A stretch of DNA of 64,000 bases. It comes from Pseudomonadota bacterium. GTDB taxonomy: Bacteria; Pseudomonadota; Alphaproteobacteria; SHVP01. A model generated the notes under the pieces. It was not told the DNA's origin, made no database searches, and worked only from the letters and a program-made list of their open reading frames with translations. The stretch is from contig JADFIH010000001.1 in assembly GCA_022566715.1 (NCBI GenBank), positions 2,420 to 66,419 of the forward strand, given 5' to 3'. Below, one piece after another: positions 3,128-56,303 of the stretch. Numbering within the stretch: the first letter of the stretch is position 1; each line of letters starts with the position of its first letter. The position numbers were made by a program, and so were the translations under genes.

Positions 3128-4073
3128 GCGGTCCCCCGGCGGGCGCGTTTTTATGGGCGTCGCCGCGCCGGCGCCCGGGCAAGGCCCGCCAGCCCAACGC
3201 ACCGAGCGCGCCCACTAACGCGGTCCCCGCAAACGCGAGTTTCGAATGGCGAACCGGTTCCGCAAGGGGATCGTCCTTGCGCAGCCGCCGCGACAGGCTT
3301 TCCGCTAGACGGAGGATCGCCGCCGACTCCATGGCCAGGCGGTGGCTTTCCAGCAACCTTGGCAAAGGCCGCGCCGCAACGAGGAGGTCGTCCACGCCGT
3401 CCAGGCACTTGTCGAAGACCCGGCGCAAGGCGGGGTCGAGCCGCGGTTCGTCGAGCGCCGTCACGTCGAGGCCCTCCGCACCGAGCCAGTCGAGCGGCAC
3501 ATACACGCGGTCGAGGCCGCGGTAGTCGGCTTGCGCATCCTGTAGGTGGTTGATCACCTGGAGCGCCGTGCAAAGCGCGTCGGACGCCGCGTAATCCTTC
3601 CGCGATTCGCCGTGAAGGTCGAGCAGATAGCGCCCGACGGGATTGGCCGAATATTCGCAGTAGGCGAGAAGGCCGGACCAGTCATCGTAGCGCCGCTTGA
3701 CCGCGTCCTGTTTGAAGGCGGTGAGAATATCGACGCAGTGTTTATCCGTCAGGCCGGTCGCGGCGAGACTTTCGCGCATCAGGTGGGCTTTTTTGAGGTC
3801 GGGCGAGTCCCGGTCCCGGCCGGTCACGGCCGCCTCAACCCGGTCGAGGCGCGCGAGCTTATCCGGCGCCGAACGGTTCGGGTCGTCGGCGATGTCGTCG
3901 GCGGCGCGGGCGAAGGCATAGAAGGCCGCGACGTGGGGCCGCAGCCGCGCCGCGATCAGGCGCGAGCCCACGGGAAAGTTTTCGTCGCCCGCACGCTTTG
4001 CCGCGACTTTTACCGCTTTCGTTGCCGATGGCGTCTCGATGTCCGCGGCCCGCGTCATCGTTGCTCCCCACAA
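3120..4073 (-). CDS. hpnC: hydroxysqualene synthase (squalene synthase family)
   Basis: 317 aa with ENFPVGSRL and AFYAFARAADDIADD squalene-synthase motifs and a hydrophobic C-terminal tail. First gene of the hpnCDE array. Confidence 0.8.
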   Translation of the reverse strand: MWGATMTRAADIETPSATKAVKVAAKRAGDENFPVGSRLIAARLRPHVAAFYAFARAADDIADDPNRSAPDKLARLDRVEAAVTGRDRDSPDLKKAHLMRESLAATGLTDKHCVDILTAFKQDAVKRRYDDWSGLLAYCEYSANPVGRYLLDLHGESRKDYAASDALCTALQVINHLQDAQADYRGLDRVYVPLDWLGAEGLDVTALDEPRLDPALRRVFDKCLDGVDDLLVAARPLPRLLESHRLAMESAAILRLAESLSRRLRKDDPLAEPVRHSKLAFAGTALVGALGALGWRALPGRRRGDAHKNAPAGGPHG

Positions 4074-6632: not shown

Positions 6633-6921
6633 AATTTTTCTCCCCGGCCGGAAGCGCGCCGCCTTGCGCCCCTGAAGCAAATCAATACGTTAGAGCAAAT
6701 TCTCCGGGTTGATGGACCGCCTTGGGCGGATCAACCGGGAGCGGCTCCGATCGACCCGGATTCGCTCCAACGGCGGCTATTCTAACGCGGAATGAGCGGG
6801 CCGTTGCAAGATGGACTCTGGCCGCCGCCACCCCCATTTGGCCCTGTATCCGACTTTGAATTTGACTTTCGAACCGGCTGTCCTACCCTGGCCTTCGATC
6901 AACACTTAGAATGCTTCCAAT

Positions 6922-9168: not shown

Positions 9169-10712
9169 GCGAGGGGCTGCGTCCCGTAACGGTGCTCATC
9201 GCCGCGATGGGCGGCGAAGGCGGCGGCGTCCTCATGGATTGGATCGTCAGGGCCGCGCGATCCCTGAACCTGCCCGTGCAAGCGACGTCGGTTCCGGGCG
9301 TGGCGCAACGCACCGGGGCCACGACCTATTATGTGGAGCTCCTGGAGACGCCCCGCCAAGCGGACGACGCGCCGGAGCCGGTCATGGATCTGTATCCGGG
9401 CGTCGGCGATATCGATCTCATGATCTCCAGCGAATTGGTCGAGACGGCGCGCGCCATCGAGAGAGGGTTCGTCAGTCCCACGCGCACCACGTTGATCGCC
9501 TCCACCCACCGCGTCTATTCGATCCTCGAGAAGATGTCGATGGGCGATGCGCGCTACGACGGCGACCGCATCATCGCGGCGGCGGGCAAGATGGCGAAGC
9601 GCCGCATCATGTTCGATATGGAGCGCGCCGCGGGCCGGGTCGGATGCCCGATGAACTCCATAATCCTTGGCGCCATCGCCGGTAGCGGCCTGCTCCCGAT
9701 CGCGCCCGAGGTGTTCGAGGAGGGGATACGAACCGGCGGAAAGGCCGTGGAGGCGAACTTGGCGGGCTTCGCCGCGGGCCTTGCCTATGCGCGCGGCGAG
9801 GCCATGGAGGACCCCCCCGCAAAGGACTCCCGCCCCAAGCCGCCCACGTTGAACGGCGCGGCCTTGGCCCTGCGGGCCCGTGTCGAGAATGAATTTCCGG
9901 CGCAAACGCACACCATTCTTTTGGAGGCGGCGGGCCGGGTTCTCGATTACCAGGACCCCCGCTACGCCGCTCTCTATCTCGACCGATTGGCCGATTTCCT
10001 GTCCGTCGACAAGGCGCGCGCCGATTCGGATTACGAATTGACGCGCGAGGTGGGCCGCCACCTGGCCCTGCGCATGACCTACGAGGACATCATCCGGGTC
10101 GCGCAGTTGAAGACGCGGCGGTCGCGCTTCGAGCGCGTGCGCCGCGAGGTCGAGGCCGAACCGGGTCAGCTCGTGAAGATCACCGAGTTCCTGAAGCCCG
10201 GCGTCGAGGAATATGCCTCGGTGCTGCCGCCGTTCGTGGCGCGGCGAATCATTTCCTGGGCCGGCAAAAAGAAAAGCCGGGCGGCCAAACTCCAGATCGG
10301 CATGCACGTGCGGACGGATACGGTGTTCGGTTTCGCCAACCTGCGCCTGGTGGCGGGCTTGCGCCGCGTCCGCCGGCGCGGATACCGCTTCCAGCAGGAG
10401 CAAAAGCTGATCGAAGACTGGTTGGCGCTGGTCCGTGAGGCCGCCGCAGCCGACTACGCGCTGGCCCTCGAAACCACCGAGTGCGCCCGCCTGCTCAAGG
10501 GGTATGGCGATACCCACGCCCGGGGGGCCGAGAACTTCGCCCGCATCGCCGAGGCGGTCATCCGGCCCGCGATCGCAGGCCACGTCCGGGACGCCGCCAA
10601 GGCCGTGCGCCGGGCACGCGACTCCGCCCTTGCCGATCCCGAGGGCAAGGATCTCGCGGAGGTCTTGTCGGAGGTCGGCGCGGGCGCTGCCGCCGACGTC
10701 TCACCGTCCTAA
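9165..10712 (+). CDS. iorB: indolepyruvate:ferredoxin oxidoreductase beta subunit
   Basis: Start MSEGLRPVTVLIAAMGGEGGG at 9165, translationally coupled to iorA. The ORF-track start at 8841 is an in-frame upstream extension. Confidence 0.8.
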   Translation: MSEGLRPVTVLIAAMGGEGGGVLMDWIVRAARSLNLPVQATSVPGVAQRTGATTYYVELLETPRQADDAPEPVMDLYPGVGDIDLMISSELVETARAIERGFVSPTRTTLIASTHRVYSILEKMSMGDARYDGDRIIAAAGKMAKRRIMFDMERAAGRVGCPMNSIILGAIAGSGLLPIAPEVFEEGIRTGGKAVEANLAGFAAGLAYARGEAMEDPPAKDSRPKPPTLNGAALALRARVENEFPAQTHTILLEAAGRVLDYQDPRYAALYLDRLADFLSVDKARADSDYELTREVGRHLALRMTYEDIIRVAQLKTRRSRFERVRREVEAEPGQLVKITEFLKPGVEEYASVLPPFVARRIISWAGKKKSRAAKLQIGMHVRTDTVFGFANLRLVAGLRRVRRRGYRFQQEQKLIEDWLALVREAAAADYALALETTECARLLKGYGDTHARGAENFARIAEAVIRPAIAGHVRDAAKAVRRARDSALADPEGKDLAEVLSEVGAGAAADVSPS

Positions 10713-10865
10713 GCCGTGCCCAATTTATCTTTCGAAGTCCTCACCCTGAGCCTGTCGCCCTGCCGGAGCAAAGCCGCTCCGGCTAAAACTTTGGGGGCGA
10801 GGACAGGTGGCAAACCCTCATACTTCGACAGGCTCAGCATGAGGGCATAGCATTGTCTCAGGCGT
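10713..10865. repeat. alphaproteobacterial REP-like palindromic intergenic repeats (LSLSK-type)
   Basis: Contains CCTCACCCTGAGCCTGTCG and its partner CCCTCATACTTCGACAGGCTCAGCATGAGGG. Near-identical units recur at 15960-16110. Generates the spurious LMLSLSKYEG ORF. Confidence 0.6.
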
Positions 10866-15936: not shown

Positions 15937-16120
15937 GCCGAGCCGTTGTTTTTGAGCCGGTGAACTCGTCCTTCGACAGGCTCAAGACGAGGCCTCATGC
16001 TGAGCTTGTCGAAGTATGGGGGAGTTCCCTCTAGGAGGTTCTCCGCCTGAGCACGTTGATGGCCTCATGCTGAGCTTGTCGAAGTATGAGGGGGGAATAA
16101 AGGCGCCGTCGTTACCGGTT
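15937..16120. repeat. REP-like palindromic repeats (two units, LSLSK-type)
   Basis: GGCCTCATGCTGAGCTTGTCGAAGTATG(G/A)GGGG occurs twice. It is the reverse complement of the unit at 10820-10850. Confidence 0.6.
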
Positions 16121-21670: not shown

Positions 21671-21788
21671 TTGGGCCTAGTTTGGCCTAGCTGAGCCTAG
21701 CCGAGTCGTGGCCTCACACTTTTTTGTCGCGGCGCGGCCCGTGGCTGGTCTACCCTTGAGCGGCGGGAACCGGACCGGGAGGGTTGTC

Positions 21789-33294: not shown

Positions 33295-33413
33295 TTTGGT
33301 ATCCCGCCCACACGGGTCCGGCGCTCCGCATGGAAGCCCCCAGGAAGGCACCTGGGGAGGCGCCTGAGAGTTTCGCTCCCAGAGGTAAACCGGAGGTGTA
33401 CCGCGCGGCGCCC

Positions 33414-33564
33414 AGAGCAATATCCGATATGATAGAACCAGCTTGGTTCAATCATATCGGATAGAATTGCTCGTCTCTTCAAGATGTTAGAGCAGCTTTA
33501 TCCGTTCGGTAATCGCCACAAGAGATCTCAATGGGGCGATTCCAAGTGAACGGATGCTGCTTTA
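33414..33564. repeat. structured palindromic repeat element, copy 1 (MITE/REP-like or sRNA candidate)
   Basis: A 60-bp near-perfect palindrome (AGAGCAATATCCGATATGATAGAACC / GGTTCAATCATATCGGATAGAATTGCTC) plus a second hairpin (AGCAGCTTTATCCGTTC ... GAACGGATGCTGCT). A reverse-complement copy sits at 56047-56178. Confidence 0.6.
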
Positions 33565-33606
33565 GGGGGTGCTATGACTTATGGCCCAGGGTGGATTTTG
33601 CTTTAG

Positions 33607-41906: not shown

Positions 41907-43307
41907 CTAGGTCTCGAGCATGCGGCGCAGAAGATCGACGTCCTCGGCCAGATTGCTATCGCTCTCGCGCAACTCGTTGATCCGCTTGACGGCATGCATG
42001 ACCGTGGTGTGGTCGCGCCCGCCGAACTTGCGGCCAATCTCGGGCAAGGACCGCGAGGTCAACTGCTTGGCCAGGAACATCGCCACCTGGCGTGGCCGGG
42101 CCACGGCCCGCGCCCGGCGCGCGGAATGCATCTCCGAGATACGGATGTTGTAGTGCTCGGCCACCCGTTTCTGGATGTCCTCGATGGTGATGCGGCGGTC
42201 GTTGGACCGCAGGAGGTCACGCAACACCTCTTGGGTAGTGTCGATCGTGATGGCCTGCCCCACCAGATTGGAATAGGCCAGCACGCGGTTCAGGGCGCCT
42301 TCCAGTTCGCGCACGTTCGAGGTTATGCGGTGCGCCAGAAATTCCAGCACCTGAAGCGGTACGTTCTTGGCGTCGAGGTGCTGGACCTTCGACTGCAGAA
42401 TGCCGACGCGCAGCTCGTAGTCGGTCGAATGGATATCGGCCACGAGCCCCCAGCCGAGCCGCGAGCGCATGCGTTCCTCCATCCCATCGAGGTTCGAGGG
42501 CGAGCGGTCGCCGGAAATAATGATCTGCCGGTTCTGATCCACCAACGCATTGAATGTATGGAAGAATTCTTCTTGGGTGGATTCCTTGCCGCTAATGAAC
42601 TGCACGTCGTCGATCATCAGCACGTCGACCGAACGGAACAGTTGTTTGAACTGCATCACGTCCTTGAACCGCAGCGCGCGGATGAACTGGTACATGAACT
42701 TTTCCGCCGACAGGTAGATCACCTTACGGTCGGGATCGCGTTCGCGGATGTGCCAGGCGATGGCGTGCATGAGATGGGTCTTGCCCAACCCAACACCGCC
42801 GTAGAGGAAGAGAGGATTAAAGGGCACGGTCGGAGATTCGGCGGCGCGCCGCGAGGCCGCATACGCGAGTTCGTTGGTTTTGCCAACGACGAAATTTTCG
42901 AAAGTGAAGCGCGGGTCGAGTGGTGCGCCCGGGTCGGACAACGCGGACATCGGTCCGGCCGGCGTCGGGCGCCCGGCCTCAGCCCCTTTCGCCGCCTCCG
43001 GCGCAGGTTCGGACACCCGAGGTCCCGCGGGACGAACGTGAATCTCGGCCGCCGCGGTCGTATCGAACTCGTCGTTCCACAACGATCTTATCTTTTCCGC
43101 GTAGTGGGAAATCACCCAATCGCGCATGAACCGGGTCGGCAGGGTCATCATCATCCGGCCATCCCGCCCACGGGTCAGGTCGAGCTGGCGCAACCAACTG
43201 TTGAATGCGGCGTCACCTACCTCAGCTTTAAGTCGCCCCCTCAGGCGTTGCCAACTCTGGGAATCCTCGGGCGAAAGCCCCTGAGACGATGACACCGGCC
43301 CCACCAT
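41907..43307 (-). CDS. dnaA: chromosomal replication initiator protein DnaA
   Basis: AAA+ Walker A GGVGLGKTHL, Walker B LMIDDVQF, C-terminal DNA-binding domain (VARPRQVAMFLAKQLTSRSLPEIG). Confidence 0.95.
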   Translation of the reverse strand: MVGPVSSSQGLSPEDSQSWQRLRGRLKAEVGDAAFNSWLRQLDLTRGRDGRMMMTLPTRFMRDWVISHYAEKIRSLWNDEFDTTAAAEIHVRPAGPRVSEPAPEAAKGAEAGRPTPAGPMSALSDPGAPLDPRFTFENFVVGKTNELAYAASRRAAESPTVPFNPLFLYGGVGLGKTHLMHAIAWHIRERDPDRKVIYLSAEKFMYQFIRALRFKDVMQFKQLFRSVDVLMIDDVQFISGKESTQEEFFHTFNALVDQNRQIIISGDRSPSNLDGMEERMRSRLGWGLVADIHSTDYELRVGILQSKVQHLDAKNVPLQVLEFLAHRITSNVRELEGALNRVLAYSNLVGQAITIDTTQEVLRDLLRSNDRRITIEDIQKRVAEHYNIRISEMHSARRARAVARPRQVAMFLAKQLTSRSLPEIGRKFGGRDHTTVMHAVKRINELRESDSNLAEDVDLLRRMLET

Positions 43308-43308
43308 A

Positions 43309-43725
43309 TCAGGCCTGAATCCAGGGAAGGCCGGCGGCCTTCCAGCCCCCGGTCACGCCGCGGTGCCGGTCGCCGTCAAGATCGCCCTCGAACCCACCGG
43401 CTACGTTGAAGCACTTCGAATACCCTGCCGCCGTCATGGCGACCGCAGCCGCTTGGGACCGTGCGCCCGACCGGCAAAGAAATAAGATGCTCGCATCGGT
43501 GTCGGTGGCCTGCGCCCGAACCTCCTCGACGAAGGCCGGGTTCTGCTCCATCTTCGGTAGTGTTTGCCAAGACACCCGAACGGCCTGTTTCCGGATTCCA
43601 GAAAGATCGGGGGCGCCGACGAAGTTCCACTCCGCGGCCGTGCGCACGTCGACGAGTACCGCCGAGGATTCGTCGCCCAATCGGCGCCACGCTTCTTCGA
43701 CACTAATATCGCCTGAGTACGTCAT
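43309..43725 (-). CDS. rhodanese-domain sulfurtransferase
   Basis: Single rhodanese domain with active-site loop CRSGARS. Its stop codon abuts the dnaA start codon. Confidence 0.75.
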   Translation of the reverse strand: MTYSGDISVEEAWRRLGDESSAVLVDVRTAAEWNFVGAPDLSGIRKQAVRVSWQTLPKMEQNPAFVEEVRAQATDTDASILFLCRSGARSQAAAVAMTAAGYSKCFNVAGGFEGDLDGDRHRGVTGGWKAAGLPWIQA

Positions 43726-44268: not shown

Positions 44269-44535
44269 TCAGACCGACATCGATTTAACGCGGCGCGACA
44301 GTTTCGACACGCGGCGCGATGCGGTGTTCTGTTTCATCACGCCCCGCCGAACACCACGCATGAGCTCTGGCTCGGCCTTCTTCAGCGCGTCCGCGGCCGC
44401 TTCACGGTCGCCACCTGCAACAGCGGTTTCGACATTCTTGATATGGGTGCGAATCCGGCTGACGCGCGCACGATTGATCGCGGTGCGGGTCTTGGTGCGG
44501 CGAATGCGCTTTTGGGCTGACTTATGATACGCCAT
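44269..44535 (-). CDS. rpsT: 30S ribosomal protein S20
   Basis: MAYHKSAQKRIRRTKTRTAINRARVSRIRT is a near-canonical S20 sequence. Confidence 0.9.
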   Translation of the reverse strand: MAYHKSAQKRIRRTKTRTAINRARVSRIRTHIKNVETAVAGGDREAAADALKKAEPELMRGVRRGVMKQNTASRRVSKLSRRVKSMSV

Positions 44536-46868: not shown

Positions 46869-46974
46869 ATTACCCTTTGTCCGTCAGGTGGGTGGCGCCC
46901 ATCACTTGGCCCCATTTGATGGGCGCGCACAACTTGTCGAAAGTAGCGCGGTTGATGGCGCTGCGCTATGGTCG

Positions 46975-47020
46975 CCACTAGAGCGGTTCCGACTTAGTCG
47001 GAACCACTCTAGCTTTTTGT
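46975..47020 (+). terminator. orphan plus-strand intrinsic terminator (possible 3' end of an unannotated small RNA)
   Basis: 17-bp stem CTAGAGCGGTTCCGACT / AGTCGGAACCACTCTAG followed by CTTTTTGT. No plus-strand CDS lies upstream, and a 10-bp GC hairpin sits at 46895-46935. Confidence 0.5.
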
Positions 47021-47145
47021 CACTCGCGGCGGCGGACCGGAAGGTCCGCGCCTGCGCGGGCGCGCCGGATAACCGGCGGGCCGCCTTGCGGCCTCGAGCG
47101 ATTCCAGCAGCCTTGAGCGGGTTCTGATGAACTGGAATCGCTCTA

Positions 47146-47979
47146 ATGACGCGGAGCGAAGAAATGCCCGACACAGCGTCGGATAACGGCGGCGCGGACG
47201 CCGAGGATACCACCGATTTTGGCTACCGCCGCGTGACGGCCGCGGAAAAACCGGAGCTGGTCCGCGGCGTCTTTGATTCAGTGGCCAACCGGTACGATCT
47301 CATGAACGATCTCATGAGCGGTGGCGTCCACCGCCTCTGGAAGAGCGCGCTGGTCGCCAAGCTCGATCCCCGGCCGCCCCTGCATTTCGTCGACGTGGCC
47401 GGCGGCACCGGCGATATCGCCTTTCGCATCCTTGCGCGCCTGAAGGCCCGCGCCGCGAAATCCGGCGAGGAGGCCGGAGCCGAGCGGAACCGCGCCACCA
47501 TCATCGACATCAACCAGCATATGCTGGACGTGGGCCGCGACCGGGCGCTCGACCGCGGTCTTATAGCCGGGCTGGACTGGGTTTGCGGCGACGCCACGGC
47601 CCTGCCGCTGGACGACTCGTCCGTCGATGCCTACACCATTGGGTTTGGCATTCGCAACGTCACCGGTATCGAGGAGGCTCTGAGGGAGGCCCGCCGCGTT
47701 CTGCGGCCGGGCGGCAGGTTCCTCTGCCTCGAATTCTGTCCGGTCGAGCGGCCCCTGCTGCGCCCCCTATACGACGCTTACTCCTTCGCGGTCGTGCCGG
47801 CGTTGGGCCGGGCCGTCGCGGGCGACGCCGAGTCCTATCGCTATCTGGTGGAAAGCATTCGCCGCTTCCCCGGACCGGAGAAGTTTACCGCCCTCATGGA
47901 GGCCGCGGGCCTCGAGCAGGTGCGGGTCCGCGCCTTAACCGGCGGTGTGGTCGCGCTGTACTCGGGTTGGCGCCTCTAG
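47146..47979 (+). CDS. ubiE: ubiquinone/menaquinone biosynthesis C-methyltransferase
   Basis: SAM-binding VDVAGGTGD and the conserved UbiE N-terminus FDSVANRYDLMNDLMSGGVHRLWK. Confidence 0.9.
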   Translation: MTRSEEMPDTASDNGGADAEDTTDFGYRRVTAAEKPELVRGVFDSVANRYDLMNDLMSGGVHRLWKSALVAKLDPRPPLHFVDVAGGTGDIAFRILARLKARAAKSGEEAGAERNRATIIDINQHMLDVGRDRALDRGLIAGLDWVCGDATALPLDDSSVDAYTIGFGIRNVTGIEEALREARRVLRPGGRFLCLEFCPVERPLLRPLYDAYSFAVVPALGRAVAGDAESYRYLVESIRRFPGPEKFTALMEAAGLEQVRVRALTGGVVALYSGWRL

Positions 47980-55508: not shown

Positions 55509-56009
55509 ATGCGCCGCGTTTGGCAAACCGCCCTTGTTGTACTGTCCGTTTTGGTGGTGCTGGCCTGGGAGAGCCCTGCCGTCCGGGCCAGCGAAAACGG
55601 GGGCTTCCTGCCGCACTTCGTCTCGTTGCGCGCGGACAAGGTGAACGTTCGCGCAGGACCGGGCATGCGCTATCCCATCTCTTGGGTGTTCCGCCGCGCC
55701 GGACTTCCGGTGGAAGCCATCGCCGAGTTCGATAATTGGTTCAAGGTGCGGTACGCCGACGGCGACGTGGGATGGGTTCACCGGCGCCTGCTCTCGGCCA
55801 GGCGCACCGCGGTCATCGCCGGCAAACTTCGGATCCTTCGGCGCGACCCCAAACCGGACGGAACCCCCGTGCTGCAGGCGGAGGAGGGGGTCCAGGGACA
55901 ACTCCTGACCTGCCAGGACGCCTGGTGTCAGTTGCAGATCGGGGGGAAAAAGGGTTGGCTCCCGCGCGAAGCCCTTTGGGGCGTGTACCCCGACGAAAAC
56001 TTCAATTAG
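55509..56009 (+). CDS. periplasmic SH3b-domain protein
   Basis: Signal peptide then an SH3-like domain (VNVRAGPGMRYPISWVF, WVHRRLL). The arrangement is common in alphaproteobacteria. Confidence 0.6.
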   Translation: MRRVWQTALVVLSVLVVLAWESPAVRASENGGFLPHFVSLRADKVNVRAGPGMRYPISWVFRRAGLPVEAIAEFDNWFKVRYADGDVGWVHRRLLSARRTAVIAGKLRILRRDPKPDGTPVLQAEEGVQGQLLTCQDAWCQLQIGGKKGWLPREALWGVYPDENFN

Positions 56010-56046
56010 CGCGATTCCGGTTCATCCGGAATCGTTCAAGGCCGCC

Positions 56047-56178
56047 AGAGCAGCATCCGTTCAGGTGAACGCCTTCGCCGCTCACCGAACGGATAAAGCT
56101 GCTCTTGCATATTGAAAAGTAGAGCAATTTTATCCGAGTGATCGAACCGGACCGGTTCAATCACTTCGGATATTGCTC
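56047..56178. repeat. structured palindromic repeat element, copy 2 (reverse orientation relative to copy 1)
   Basis: Reverse complement aligns with 33414-33564, including palindrome arms and the AGCAGCTTTATCCGTTCGG / GAACGGATGCTGCT hairpin. Arm differences are partly compensatory. Confidence 0.6.
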
Positions 56179-56303
56179 TAGGCGCCCCGCCGGTTATCCG
56201 GCGCGCCCGCGCAGGCGCGGACATCCTTAATTCATCCGAGATTGGCCCGTCCGAAGCCGTGAGCGACAAAAACTAGCGCGCCGACCCGGCGCCGCAATGC
56301 GCT

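Follow-up and report, generated by a model that had tools for sequence, protein, structure and literature searches.

Two copies of a dispersed two-hairpin repeat

The 64,000-nucleotide stretch of contig JADFIH010000001.1 analyzed here (the window), part of the alphaproteobacterial assembly GCA_022566715.1, holds two inverted copies of an element composed of two consecutive hairpins. An earlier note on this DNA, made from the sequence alone, had drawn attention to the pair, and both copies are present as claimed, on opposite strands (Table 1) and 82% identical over ≈150 alignment columns. [quoted passage not shown] The family is dispersed and strictly intergenic, is bordered by CTAG, has been gained and lost at orthologous sites, and has conserved its potential to form hairpins.

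The only large difference between the two copies is the loop of hairpin 2, which is 16 nt longer in copy 1 than in other copies. Their flanks are unrelated by alignment, and their gene contexts differ as the earlier note had described, with copy 1 separating a small open reading frame (ORF) from the divergent CobD/CbiB gene and copy 2 located between the convergent SH3 and DUF3501 genes. The motif GAGCA-N(1-6)-ATCCG has seven occurrences in the 64-kb window, all of them within the two copies; the mean in shuffled sequences is 1.5, and none of 100 shuffles reaches seven. The copies also stand apart in base composition, with a G+C content of 47–51% vs 63.7% for the window. No third close copy was found in the window, either by blastn-short or with a covariance model run with filters off.

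Distribution of the family

A scan of one genome per species with a pattern describing one hairpin with both conserved arms returned at least 116 loci. Approximately 10 of these are nonpalindromic chance matches from other phyla; the remainder are true hairpins that come from at least ≈55 assemblies, as counted by contig prefixes, nearly all of them alphaproteobacterial. Carriers among the matches listed include Acidocella, Acidiphilium, Acidisphaera, Lichenicoccus, Elioraea, and Asaia (Acetobacteraceae being common), together with Hyphomicrobium (Hyphomicrobiaceae), Devosia, Geminicoccaceae, Kiloniellaceae, and many alphaproteobacterial metagenome-assembled genomes (MAGs). When a profile built on the two window copies was applied to the listed loci, at least 53 full two-hairpin elements of 134–167 bp were recovered, the window's two included. 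The search for further copies proposed in the earlier note thus yields at least 51 other full elements. Family statistics reported below (borders, context, folding, and GANTC content) were computed on these 53 elements, or on 50 of them for the borders. Copies within a genome are near-identical, and the upper stems are genome-specific.

Membership of the window copies was assessed with a covariance model (R1) from which they themselves had been excluded and which rests on 37 elements of other genomes. R1 matches copy 2 at 56043–56184 (−) with 122.2 bits (E 3e-30) and copy 1 at 33409–33567 (+) with 111.1 bits (E 2e-27), in both cases over model positions 1–145. By this fair test, the window copies belong to a two-arm family bounded by CTAG.

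Architecture and conservation of the hairpins

The element is ≈135–150 bp long and consists of two bulged stem-loop arms of 46–73 nt, joined by an AT-rich linker of ≈17 nt whose length is conserved across the family and whose sequence is variable. In each arm, the lower stem is conserved, GAGCA-RY-ATCCG being paired with CGGAT-NNN-RY-TGCTC, with a 3-nt bulge at NNN (RAA or TTT); the upper stem and loop are variable and differ between genomes. Because the bulge lies on the 3′ arm in hairpin 1 and switches to the 5′ arm in hairpin 2, the second hairpin is an inverted version of the first. This inversion in turn provides the element with short terminal inverted repeats of 12–13 bp (GAGCA-RY-ATCCG / CGGAT-RY-TGCTC), each end of which also pairs with an inner repeat. 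The design is modular, since in Acetobacteraceae the first arm is coupled to a different second arm, TAGAGCGTTTCCG...CGGAAAACGCTCTAG. No conserved ORF lies within the element.

Sites for GANTC are enriched in the family (61 in the 53 elements vs 28.7 ± 5.5 in shuffles). Most are found at one constant position in arm 2, GCGATTCC in its upper stem; where Acetobacteraceae have short arms, the site is at the apex (GGAATCG). It is carried by 40 of the 53 elements and is lacking in the other 13. Copy 1 has a single such site, GATTC at 33538 in hairpin 2, and the window overall, with 188 sites, is not depleted in GANTC. A DnaA box was also considered for the conserved sequence and rejected, in that TTATCCG resembles part of such a box and the CACA half is lacking.

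Two hairpins are predicted for each copy whichever strand is folded, the z-scores relative to dinucleotide shuffles being −8.2 to −12.1. Hairpin 1 of copy 1 is an inverted repeat of 20 nt with 95% complementarity and a predicted fold of −32.5 kcal/mol. Matched changes on the two arms of this hairpin had been pointed out before, and the observation is right in substance: between copies 1 and 2, two pairs are fully compensated (A:T to G:C, mid-stem and loop-closing), one A·A mismatch stands against a T·G wobble, and one pair is lost to a 1-nt bulge. The family alignment, with a consensus of 40 pairs in two arms, extends this pattern to both stems, in which the covariation that remained to be checked on further copies proves to be strong. 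Paired cells amount to 94.5% vs 83.3% in shuffles, double-change cells number 169 vs 52 in shuffles (0 of 500 reach 169) and 22–40 in slid controls, and compensated changes are found at 23 of the 40 pairs.

The conserved structure shows no preference for a strand. The top strand folds better in 26 of the 53 elements and the bottom strand in 27 (Wilcoxon p = 0.82), and no significant orientation bias to the neighboring genes is present among the 53, apart from a slight tendency of arm 1 to point toward the 3′ end of a gene (32 vs 20 borders; 11 vs 4 tandem contexts). Searches of Rfam at the gathering score gave no match in the window or in 18 element-bearing loci, and relaxed thresholds gave only chance-level matches of copy 2 to unrelated families (E 0.4–8). 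Simple scans, including one for a hairpin followed by a T run, detected no terminator-like or promoter-like signal inside either copy. What is constrained is DNA able to form hairpins, or equally either of its transcripts, and not a dedicated strand-specific RNA. The lack of strand asymmetry, of significant orientation bias, and of an Rfam match thus favors a DNA element over a dedicated RNA. The earlier note had left the choice between a mobile MITE/REP-type element (REP, repetitive extragenic palindrome) and a dispersed structured RNA family, as opposed to a gene-specific operator. Its mobile element is upheld by the occurrence in many genomes, the borders, the filled and empty sites, and the covariation, and its RNA family loses ground to the equality of the strands and the silence of Rfam.

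Borders and gene context

Alignment of 50 elements reveals a sharply defined border on each side. Immediately before GAGCA, the sequence is C in 45, T in 42, and A in 47 elements; after TGCTC it is T in 38 and A in 39 (each out of 47) and G in 43. The flanks beyond these positions are random. The border therefore takes the form C-TA-[GAGCA...TGCTC]-TA-G, CTAG being canonical at either side, and TAG/CTAG also delimits each single arm. The base that precedes TAG is C in 45 of the 50 elements and G in none.

According to a crude gene caller based on G+C content at third codon positions (GC3), all 53 elements lie outside genes. The gene contexts are convergent (16), divergent (14), and tandem (15, as 11 + 4), in both orientations. 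The terminal TAG doubles as a stop codon at 13 + 4 of the 106 borders, where it ends an ORF with high GC3 and a length of at least 80 codons. One such gene, in locus L110, ends in TAC-TAG followed directly by the element, and its ortholog in locus L107 ends in TAC-TGA.

The tetranucleotide CTAG is itself strongly rare in the window, with 36 sites vs an expectation of 214 by base composition and of 54 by a trinucleotide Markov model, and several of the 36 are at repeat borders or stop codons. Three of them fall within 21671–21700, where three 10-bp units that end in GGCCTAG/AGCCTAG (GTTGGGCCTAG TTTGGCCTAG CTGAGCCTAG) are arranged in tandem straight after a gene that stops with TAG.

Filled and empty orthologous sites

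Orthologous loci were reached through CobD homologs for copy 1 and through DUF3501 homologs for copy 2. Copy 1 is present, long loop included, in L199 (CobD 99% identical in amino acid sequence) and L200 (90%) and is absent in L201 (83%) and L202/L203 (79%), which are devoid of any element over up to 21 kb. Between the anchors CATAGCACC and GGTACACC, both empty sites measure 32 nt, and the filled sites measure the same 32 nt once the core and a single tetranucleotide are subtracted. A target-site duplication fits these lengths, because the empty site equals the filled site less the core and one, not two, tetranucleotides. Copy 1 is flanked by CTAA...CTGG in the window and by CTGG...CTAG in L200, from which it follows that both flanks were CTAG in the ancestor. 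Hairpin 1 of the L200 ortholog (3408–3575) is 9 nt longer through an insertion, and several changes in this copy are unpaired, which shows the slow decay of an old, immobile copy.

Copy 2 is absent from L118 (DUF3501 92% identical in amino acid sequence), as is most of a second repeat module, M, that surrounds copy 2 in the window. No element was found in 80 more distant DUF3501 loci.

Module M is ≈170 bp long and bounded by CTAG/CTAA. It has three parts, namely the small hairpin TTTTTGTC, the sequence GTCCGCGCCTGCGCGGGCGCGCCGGATAACCGGCGGG, which is GC-rich, and the terminal hairpin GAGCGATTCC...GGAATCGCTC. An uninterrupted paralog at 47 kb serves as a paralogous empty site (Table 1). Copy 2 interrupts M where the intact paralog reads C-TT-G, such that ...GCC-TT-GCGG... 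in the latter corresponds to ...GCC-TA[GAGCA...TGCTC]TG-GCGG... at copy 2, which is nested within M. The TTAG border of M at 56006–56009 contains the TAG stop codon of the SH3 gene. At the copy 2 locus, L118 retains only the terminal hairpin of M. The module is also found in L099 (5553–5689) with 86% identity; L099 was considered as a further empty site and rejected, its match to window positions 46969–47107 being shared module M rather than orthology.

Overall, the junctions fit duplication of TA at a CTAG target and would equally fit duplication of the whole CTAG. The lengths of filled and empty sites, the nested insertion in M, and the stop codon junction of L110 vs L107 all agree with such a duplication, for which the earlier note had proposed a test.

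A proposed mode of propagation

These observations can be combined in a model that we regard as probable as a whole. Its observed basis is that the element entered the DNA between genes at CTAG-like sites, which are often TAG stop codons, and that the junctions equal a duplication of the central TA or, equivalently, of the whole CTAG. Insertion would be catalyzed in trans by a transposase encoded elsewhere, and the junction signature suggests a TA-duplicating DDE enzyme, for instance of the IS630/Tc1 family or an IS711-like member of the IS5 family (IS, insertion sequence). The conserved bulged lower stems may be the recognition sites of that enzyme, and the hairpins may form as single-stranded or cruciform DNA during propagation of the copies; if hairpin formation is needed for propagation, the compensatory changes would follow from it. 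Both window copies are old and slightly decayed insertions, copy 1 predating the split from the lineage with 90% CobD identity and copy 2 having landed in M. Effects on neighboring genes would be secondary, possibly exerted through the GANTC methylation site that most family members carry in arm 2, and roles for the host at the RNA level or linked to methylation are possible as secondary uses.

Several results weigh against this model. The loci flanking the copies contain no autonomous element and no transposase with matching ends, and no recurrent protein family is present among 3,049 ORFs from the at least 116 loci, taken over 8 kb around each; all-against-all clustering of ORFs beside the copies returned only housekeeping functions (ABC ATPase, SDR, dehydrogenase, and kinase). 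Pairs of outer ends 0.6–4 kb apart are absent from the ≈0.8 Mb of flanking DNA. Neither the window copy nor an Acetobacteraceae variant has a blastn match among the 72,556 plasmids of PLSDB, and 2.9 million viral contigs yield one pattern match, which is probably due to chance. Such near-absence from plasmids and viral contigs is unlike typical IS derivatives that spread horizontally, and the element is nonautonomous and chromosomal. The ends, TA/GAGCA, do not to our knowledge resemble those of IS630 or Tc1. Complementarity is kept within the arms and not between the ends, a feature that a duplex-binding DDE transposase does not need and that is more typical of hairpin-recognizing enzymes. Finally, the empty sites come from relatives with 79–83% identity and read GTGA and ACGC instead of CTAG, and so the duplication rests on length accounting and the border logo, not on an identical sequence before insertion; duplications of 2 and 4 bp are, moreover, indistinguishable, the ends being palindromic.

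Integron attC sites and IS200/IS605 ends were considered because of the bulged hairpins and rejected. Their core motifs are different, and ends of the IS200/IS605 type would place both hairpins on the same strand, in contrast to the opposite polarity observed here.

Alternative explanations

The main rival is a route like that of the REP doublets known as REPINs, which explains the complementarity within arms better than a DDE transposase does and which we nevertheless regard as improbable overall. A single-copy HUH (Y1) enzyme of the RAYT or IS200-IS605 type would read each bulged hairpin as single-stranded DNA, the mobile doublet would consist of the two inverted hairpins, and CTAG would be the cleavage or target tetranucleotide, like GTAG, with no true duplication. 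Within-arm complementarity has indeed been kept by many compensatory changes while the arms differ, and the fixed 3-nt bulge confers a polarity that is opposite in the two arms, as in inverted REP doublets. The TAG/CTAG boundary of each individual arm, the genome-specific upper stems that are near-identical within a genome, and the absence from plasmids and phages expected of vertically inherited REPIN populations agree with this route as well, and insertion of a CTAG-ending element 3′ of CTAG would mimic a 4-bp duplication. The characteristic GTAG/CGTC tag is absent, however, as the nucleotide before TAG is C in 45/50 elements and never G. The arms, at 46–73 nt, exceed the 20–40 bp typical of REPs and cannot pair lengthwise with each other as REPIN arms do, and no Y1-transposase-like ORF recurs beside the copies, few genomes being sampled deeply.

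Somewhat less probable again is a DNA site kept by the host, either a CcrM (GANTC) methylation or cell-cycle mark or a site for a nucleoid protein, which mobility would merely disperse. Bacterial interspersed mosaic elements (BIMEs) are sites for IHF and gyrase. In the present family, the enrichment of GANTC at a fixed spot and the conservation of the lower stems across orders are compatible with such a function, and the CcrM-associated intergenic repeats (CIR) are described with the same two-arm layout and GANTC at the terminal loop (PMC2229807). A mark of this kind is at odds with copy 2 and 13 of the 53 elements, which lack GANTC, and with a window that is not depleted in it. The positions of the elements also differ between close relatives, their placement relative to promoters is not consistent, and no binding protein is known.

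We consider it unlikelier still that the element is primarily a structured RNA, be it a dispersed small RNA or a module that acts in cis (for instance as terminator, processing site, or 3′-end stabilizer). Stable folds (z −8 to −12) and strong covariation are what such an RNA would display, approximately one-third of the copies are flanked by convergent genes, and many adjoin stop codons, where a stabilizing 3′ hairpin could act; there is also the weak trend of arm 1 toward gene 3′ ends, and REP and repeat elements of Sinorhizobium meliloti are reported to be transcribed (PMC2873474). The strands, however, fold equally well (26 vs 27 of 53, p = 0.82), and divergent, convergent, and tandem contexts all occur in both orientations. 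The element belongs to no Rfam family and contains no promoter-like site or hairpin with a T run, the DUF3501 operon has a terminator-like hairpin of its own, and empty orthologous sites in close relatives leave no locus-specific function that is conserved.

A segmental duplication confined to the source genome, whether by chance or local, which the earlier note would have accepted had only these two copies existed and been unconserved at orthologous sites in relatives, is practically without probability, for although the 64-kb window holds just two, at least 51 further full elements and at least 100 hairpins are found in at least ≈55 assemblies, the R1 matches reach E ≈1e-27 to 1e-30, and the flanks are unrelated.

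Features of the window

Coordinates of the two copies and of module M are listed in Table 1.

Table 1 Coordinates of the two-hairpin copies and of module M in the window
Feature	Position	Strand	Remarks
Copy 1, whole element	33412–33565	+	Includes degenerate flanking tetranucleotides (CCAG ... TTAG); from sequence, alignment, and model R1
Copy 1, hairpin 1	33415–33472	+	5′ arm GAGCAAT-ATCCGA..., 3′ arm ...TCGGAT-AGA (3-nt bulge)-ATTGCTC; apex GAACCAGCTTGGTTC
Copy 1, linker	33473–33489	+	AT-rich, joins the hairpins; GTCTCTTCAAGATGTTA
Copy 1, hairpin 2	33490–33562	+	5′ arm GAGCAGC-TTT (bulge)-ATCCGTTCGG..., 3′ arm ...GAACGGAT-GCTGCTT
Copy 2, whole element	56045–56181	−	Inverted; CTAG at 56178–56181, opposite border degenerate (CCAG, 56045–56048)
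Copy 2, hairpin 1	56122–56178	−	Fold −34.2 kcal/mol
Copy 2, linker	56105–56121	−	
Copy 2, hairpin 2	56048–56104	−	Fold −37.5 kcal/mol; GANTC absent
Module M, uninterrupted copy	46978–47146	+	Paralogous empty site ...GGGCCGCC-TT-GCGGCC..., TT at 47086–47087
Module M, one half beside copy 2	56182–56276	−	Up to CTAG at 56273–56276; 97.7% identical over 43 nt to M at 47 kb
Module M, other half	56006–56044	−	Hairpin GATTCCGG...CCGGAATC and TTAG border at 56006–56009

Other hairpins in the window share features with the two copies. At 46978–47013, a 31-bp hairpin, GAGCGGTTCCGACTTAGTCGGAACCACTC, has CTAG on each side and is followed by a T run, and the equivalent position of M at 56.2 kb (56273–56276) shows CTAG only once. 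Short single GAGC...GCTC hairpins may therefore share this mode of insertion. A distant cousin of the family at ≈6690–6772, TTAGAGCAAATTCTCCGGGTTGATGGACCGCC...GGCGGATCAACCGGG...CCGGATTCGCTCCAA, lies in a divergent intergenic region and is matched by R1 on both strands with 24.8 bits (E 7e-5). The LSLSK-type repeats at 10.7 and 16.0 kb (10700–10840 and 15990–16095; CTCATGCTGAGCTTGTCGAAGTATG...) lack the GAGCA and ATCCG motifs and, judged by eye, are a different family, as had been stated before.

The stop codon of the DUF3501 gene is directly followed by a terminator-like hairpin, GCGCCGGGTCGGCGC, and then GCTAGTTTTT, at 56278–56292 (−). From this position, the operon appears to have its own terminator, upstream of copy 2. 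Elsewhere in the window, rpsT (ribosomal protein S20) is located at ≈44269–44530 (−), followed by an AT-rich gap (44% G+C, 43.7–44.0 kb) and an ORF of ≈480 amino acids at 41907–43352 (−). In the relative L202, DnaA, DnaN, RecF, and GyrB are encoded near cobD, and for this reason the window may lie near the dnaA/origin region.

Implications

The evidence for duplication of a CTAG target site is the most useful by-product of the analysis, given that for repeats of the CIR type both duplication and the mode of mobility are listed as unknown in a published review (PMC2229807). Together, the filled and empty sites, the CTAG logo, and the frequent landing on TAG stop codons provide a testable lead to the class of the enzyme and to the part of the element that it recognizes. 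Presence and absence at orthologous sites offer lineage markers among uncultured relatives.

The elements also have practical consequences for annotation. They yield spurious ORFs and false predictions of small RNAs and terminators in alphaproteobacterial intergenic DNA, and R1 could be used to mask them. They break metagenome assemblies: the ends of two contigs (Logan or MAG), L099 (5867) and L117 (969), lie inside or right at copies.

Comparison with known repeat systems

Among described repeats, CIR1–CIR4 (Chen & Shapiro 2003 via Delihas 2008) of Caulobacter crescentus, Brucella, and other Alphaproteobacteria offer the closest description that was found. The review presents them as multicopy, strictly intergenic elements of ≈110 bp with two independently folding arms and a linker, GANTC at the terminal loop, 5′-TA-3′ termini, and no known autonomous partner; it lists their target-site duplication as unknown, leaves their mobility unexplained, and speculates on a CcrM-linked role (PMC2229807). 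Likened by description only, the two-hairpin family agrees in all these features of architecture, being multicopy and strictly intergenic, with two arms and a linker, GANTC in one arm, and TA termini. It differs from CIR in length (134–167 bp vs ≈110 bp), in the support that filled and empty sites give to a target-site duplication, and in copy 2, which has lost the GANTC that CIR carry. The CIR genera Caulobacter and Brucella are not among the matches listed in the genome scan.

A similar likeness, again by description only, exists to Bru-RS1/Bru-RS2 of Brucella and to RIME1/RIME2, the Sm-repeats, and the AB/C palindromes of S. meliloti, which are intergenic palindromes of ≈100–190 bp with dozens of copies and no known function (PMC2573895, PMC2267715, PMC10800456). 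The Bru-RS repeats are favored targets of IS711 (PMC2266754, PMC3163539), which duplicates the TA of YTAR (PMC2266754). Like Bru-RS and RIME, the two-hairpin family is a palindromic intergenic repeat of Alphaproteobacteria, its CTAG borders would suit a YTAR target, and the position of copy 2 inside module M recalls the so-called mosaic elements. The family is not close in sequence to the plasmid content of PLSDB, in which rhizobial megaplasmids are presumably included.

Outside this class, Correia/NEMIS, RUP, and ERIC are small, noncoding, multicopy MITEs found mainly between genes, and the TA at either end of them derives from duplication of the target (PMC2229807), and the IS630 family duplicates TA, IS630 itself preferring TA within CTAG (PMC2170065). 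The border logo of the two-hairpin family is exactly the CTAG site that IS630 prefers. TA-duplicating MITEs, however, fold as one long hairpin from end to end, whereas each half of the two-hairpin element folds on itself, its terminal inverted repeats are only 12–13 bp, and its ends are unrelated in sequence to those of such MITEs. RUP has a cognate IS630-Spn1; no cognate IS was found for the two-hairpin family in ≈0.8 Mb of flanking DNA.

The REP superfamilies are defined by an unpaired GTAG or CGTC tag beside a palindrome of 20–40 bp, and CGTC-type REPs are reported to be missing from Acetobacteraceae (PMC3733652), in which the two-hairpin family is common. Resemblance to the REP/REPIN-RAYT systems and BIMEs of Gammaproteobacteria lies in the bulged polar palindromes, the inverted doublets, the genome-specific populations, the chromosomal and apparently vertical inheritance, and the mosaic clustering with other repeats. 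Assignment to the GTAG or CGTC superfamily was rejected, as the border is CTAG without either tag, the arms are longer, and the junctions fit target-site duplication. No RAYT gene was seen in the 8 kb around each copy.

A broader reading, speculative and more doubtful than not by a wide measure, would unite the two-arm elements, CIR, Bru-RS, RIME, and the CTAG-bounded GAGC...GCTC hairpins of the window (46978–47013, 47096–47143, and ≈6690–6772) in one ancient, class-wide group, propagated vertically by a probably single-copy domesticated enzyme that reads the bulged stem and inserts at CTAG, and perhaps coupled to CcrM through GANTC. Such a group would be an alphaproteobacterial counterpart of REPIN-RAYT, with a different tag and possibly a different class of enzyme. 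We found no published name for the two-hairpin family among these systems, CIR, Bru-RS, and RIME being compared by description only. Overall, the two-hairpin family, apparently unnamed, is very like CIR, Bru-RS, and RIME and represents an ordinary kind of genomic repeat rather than a new kind of system.

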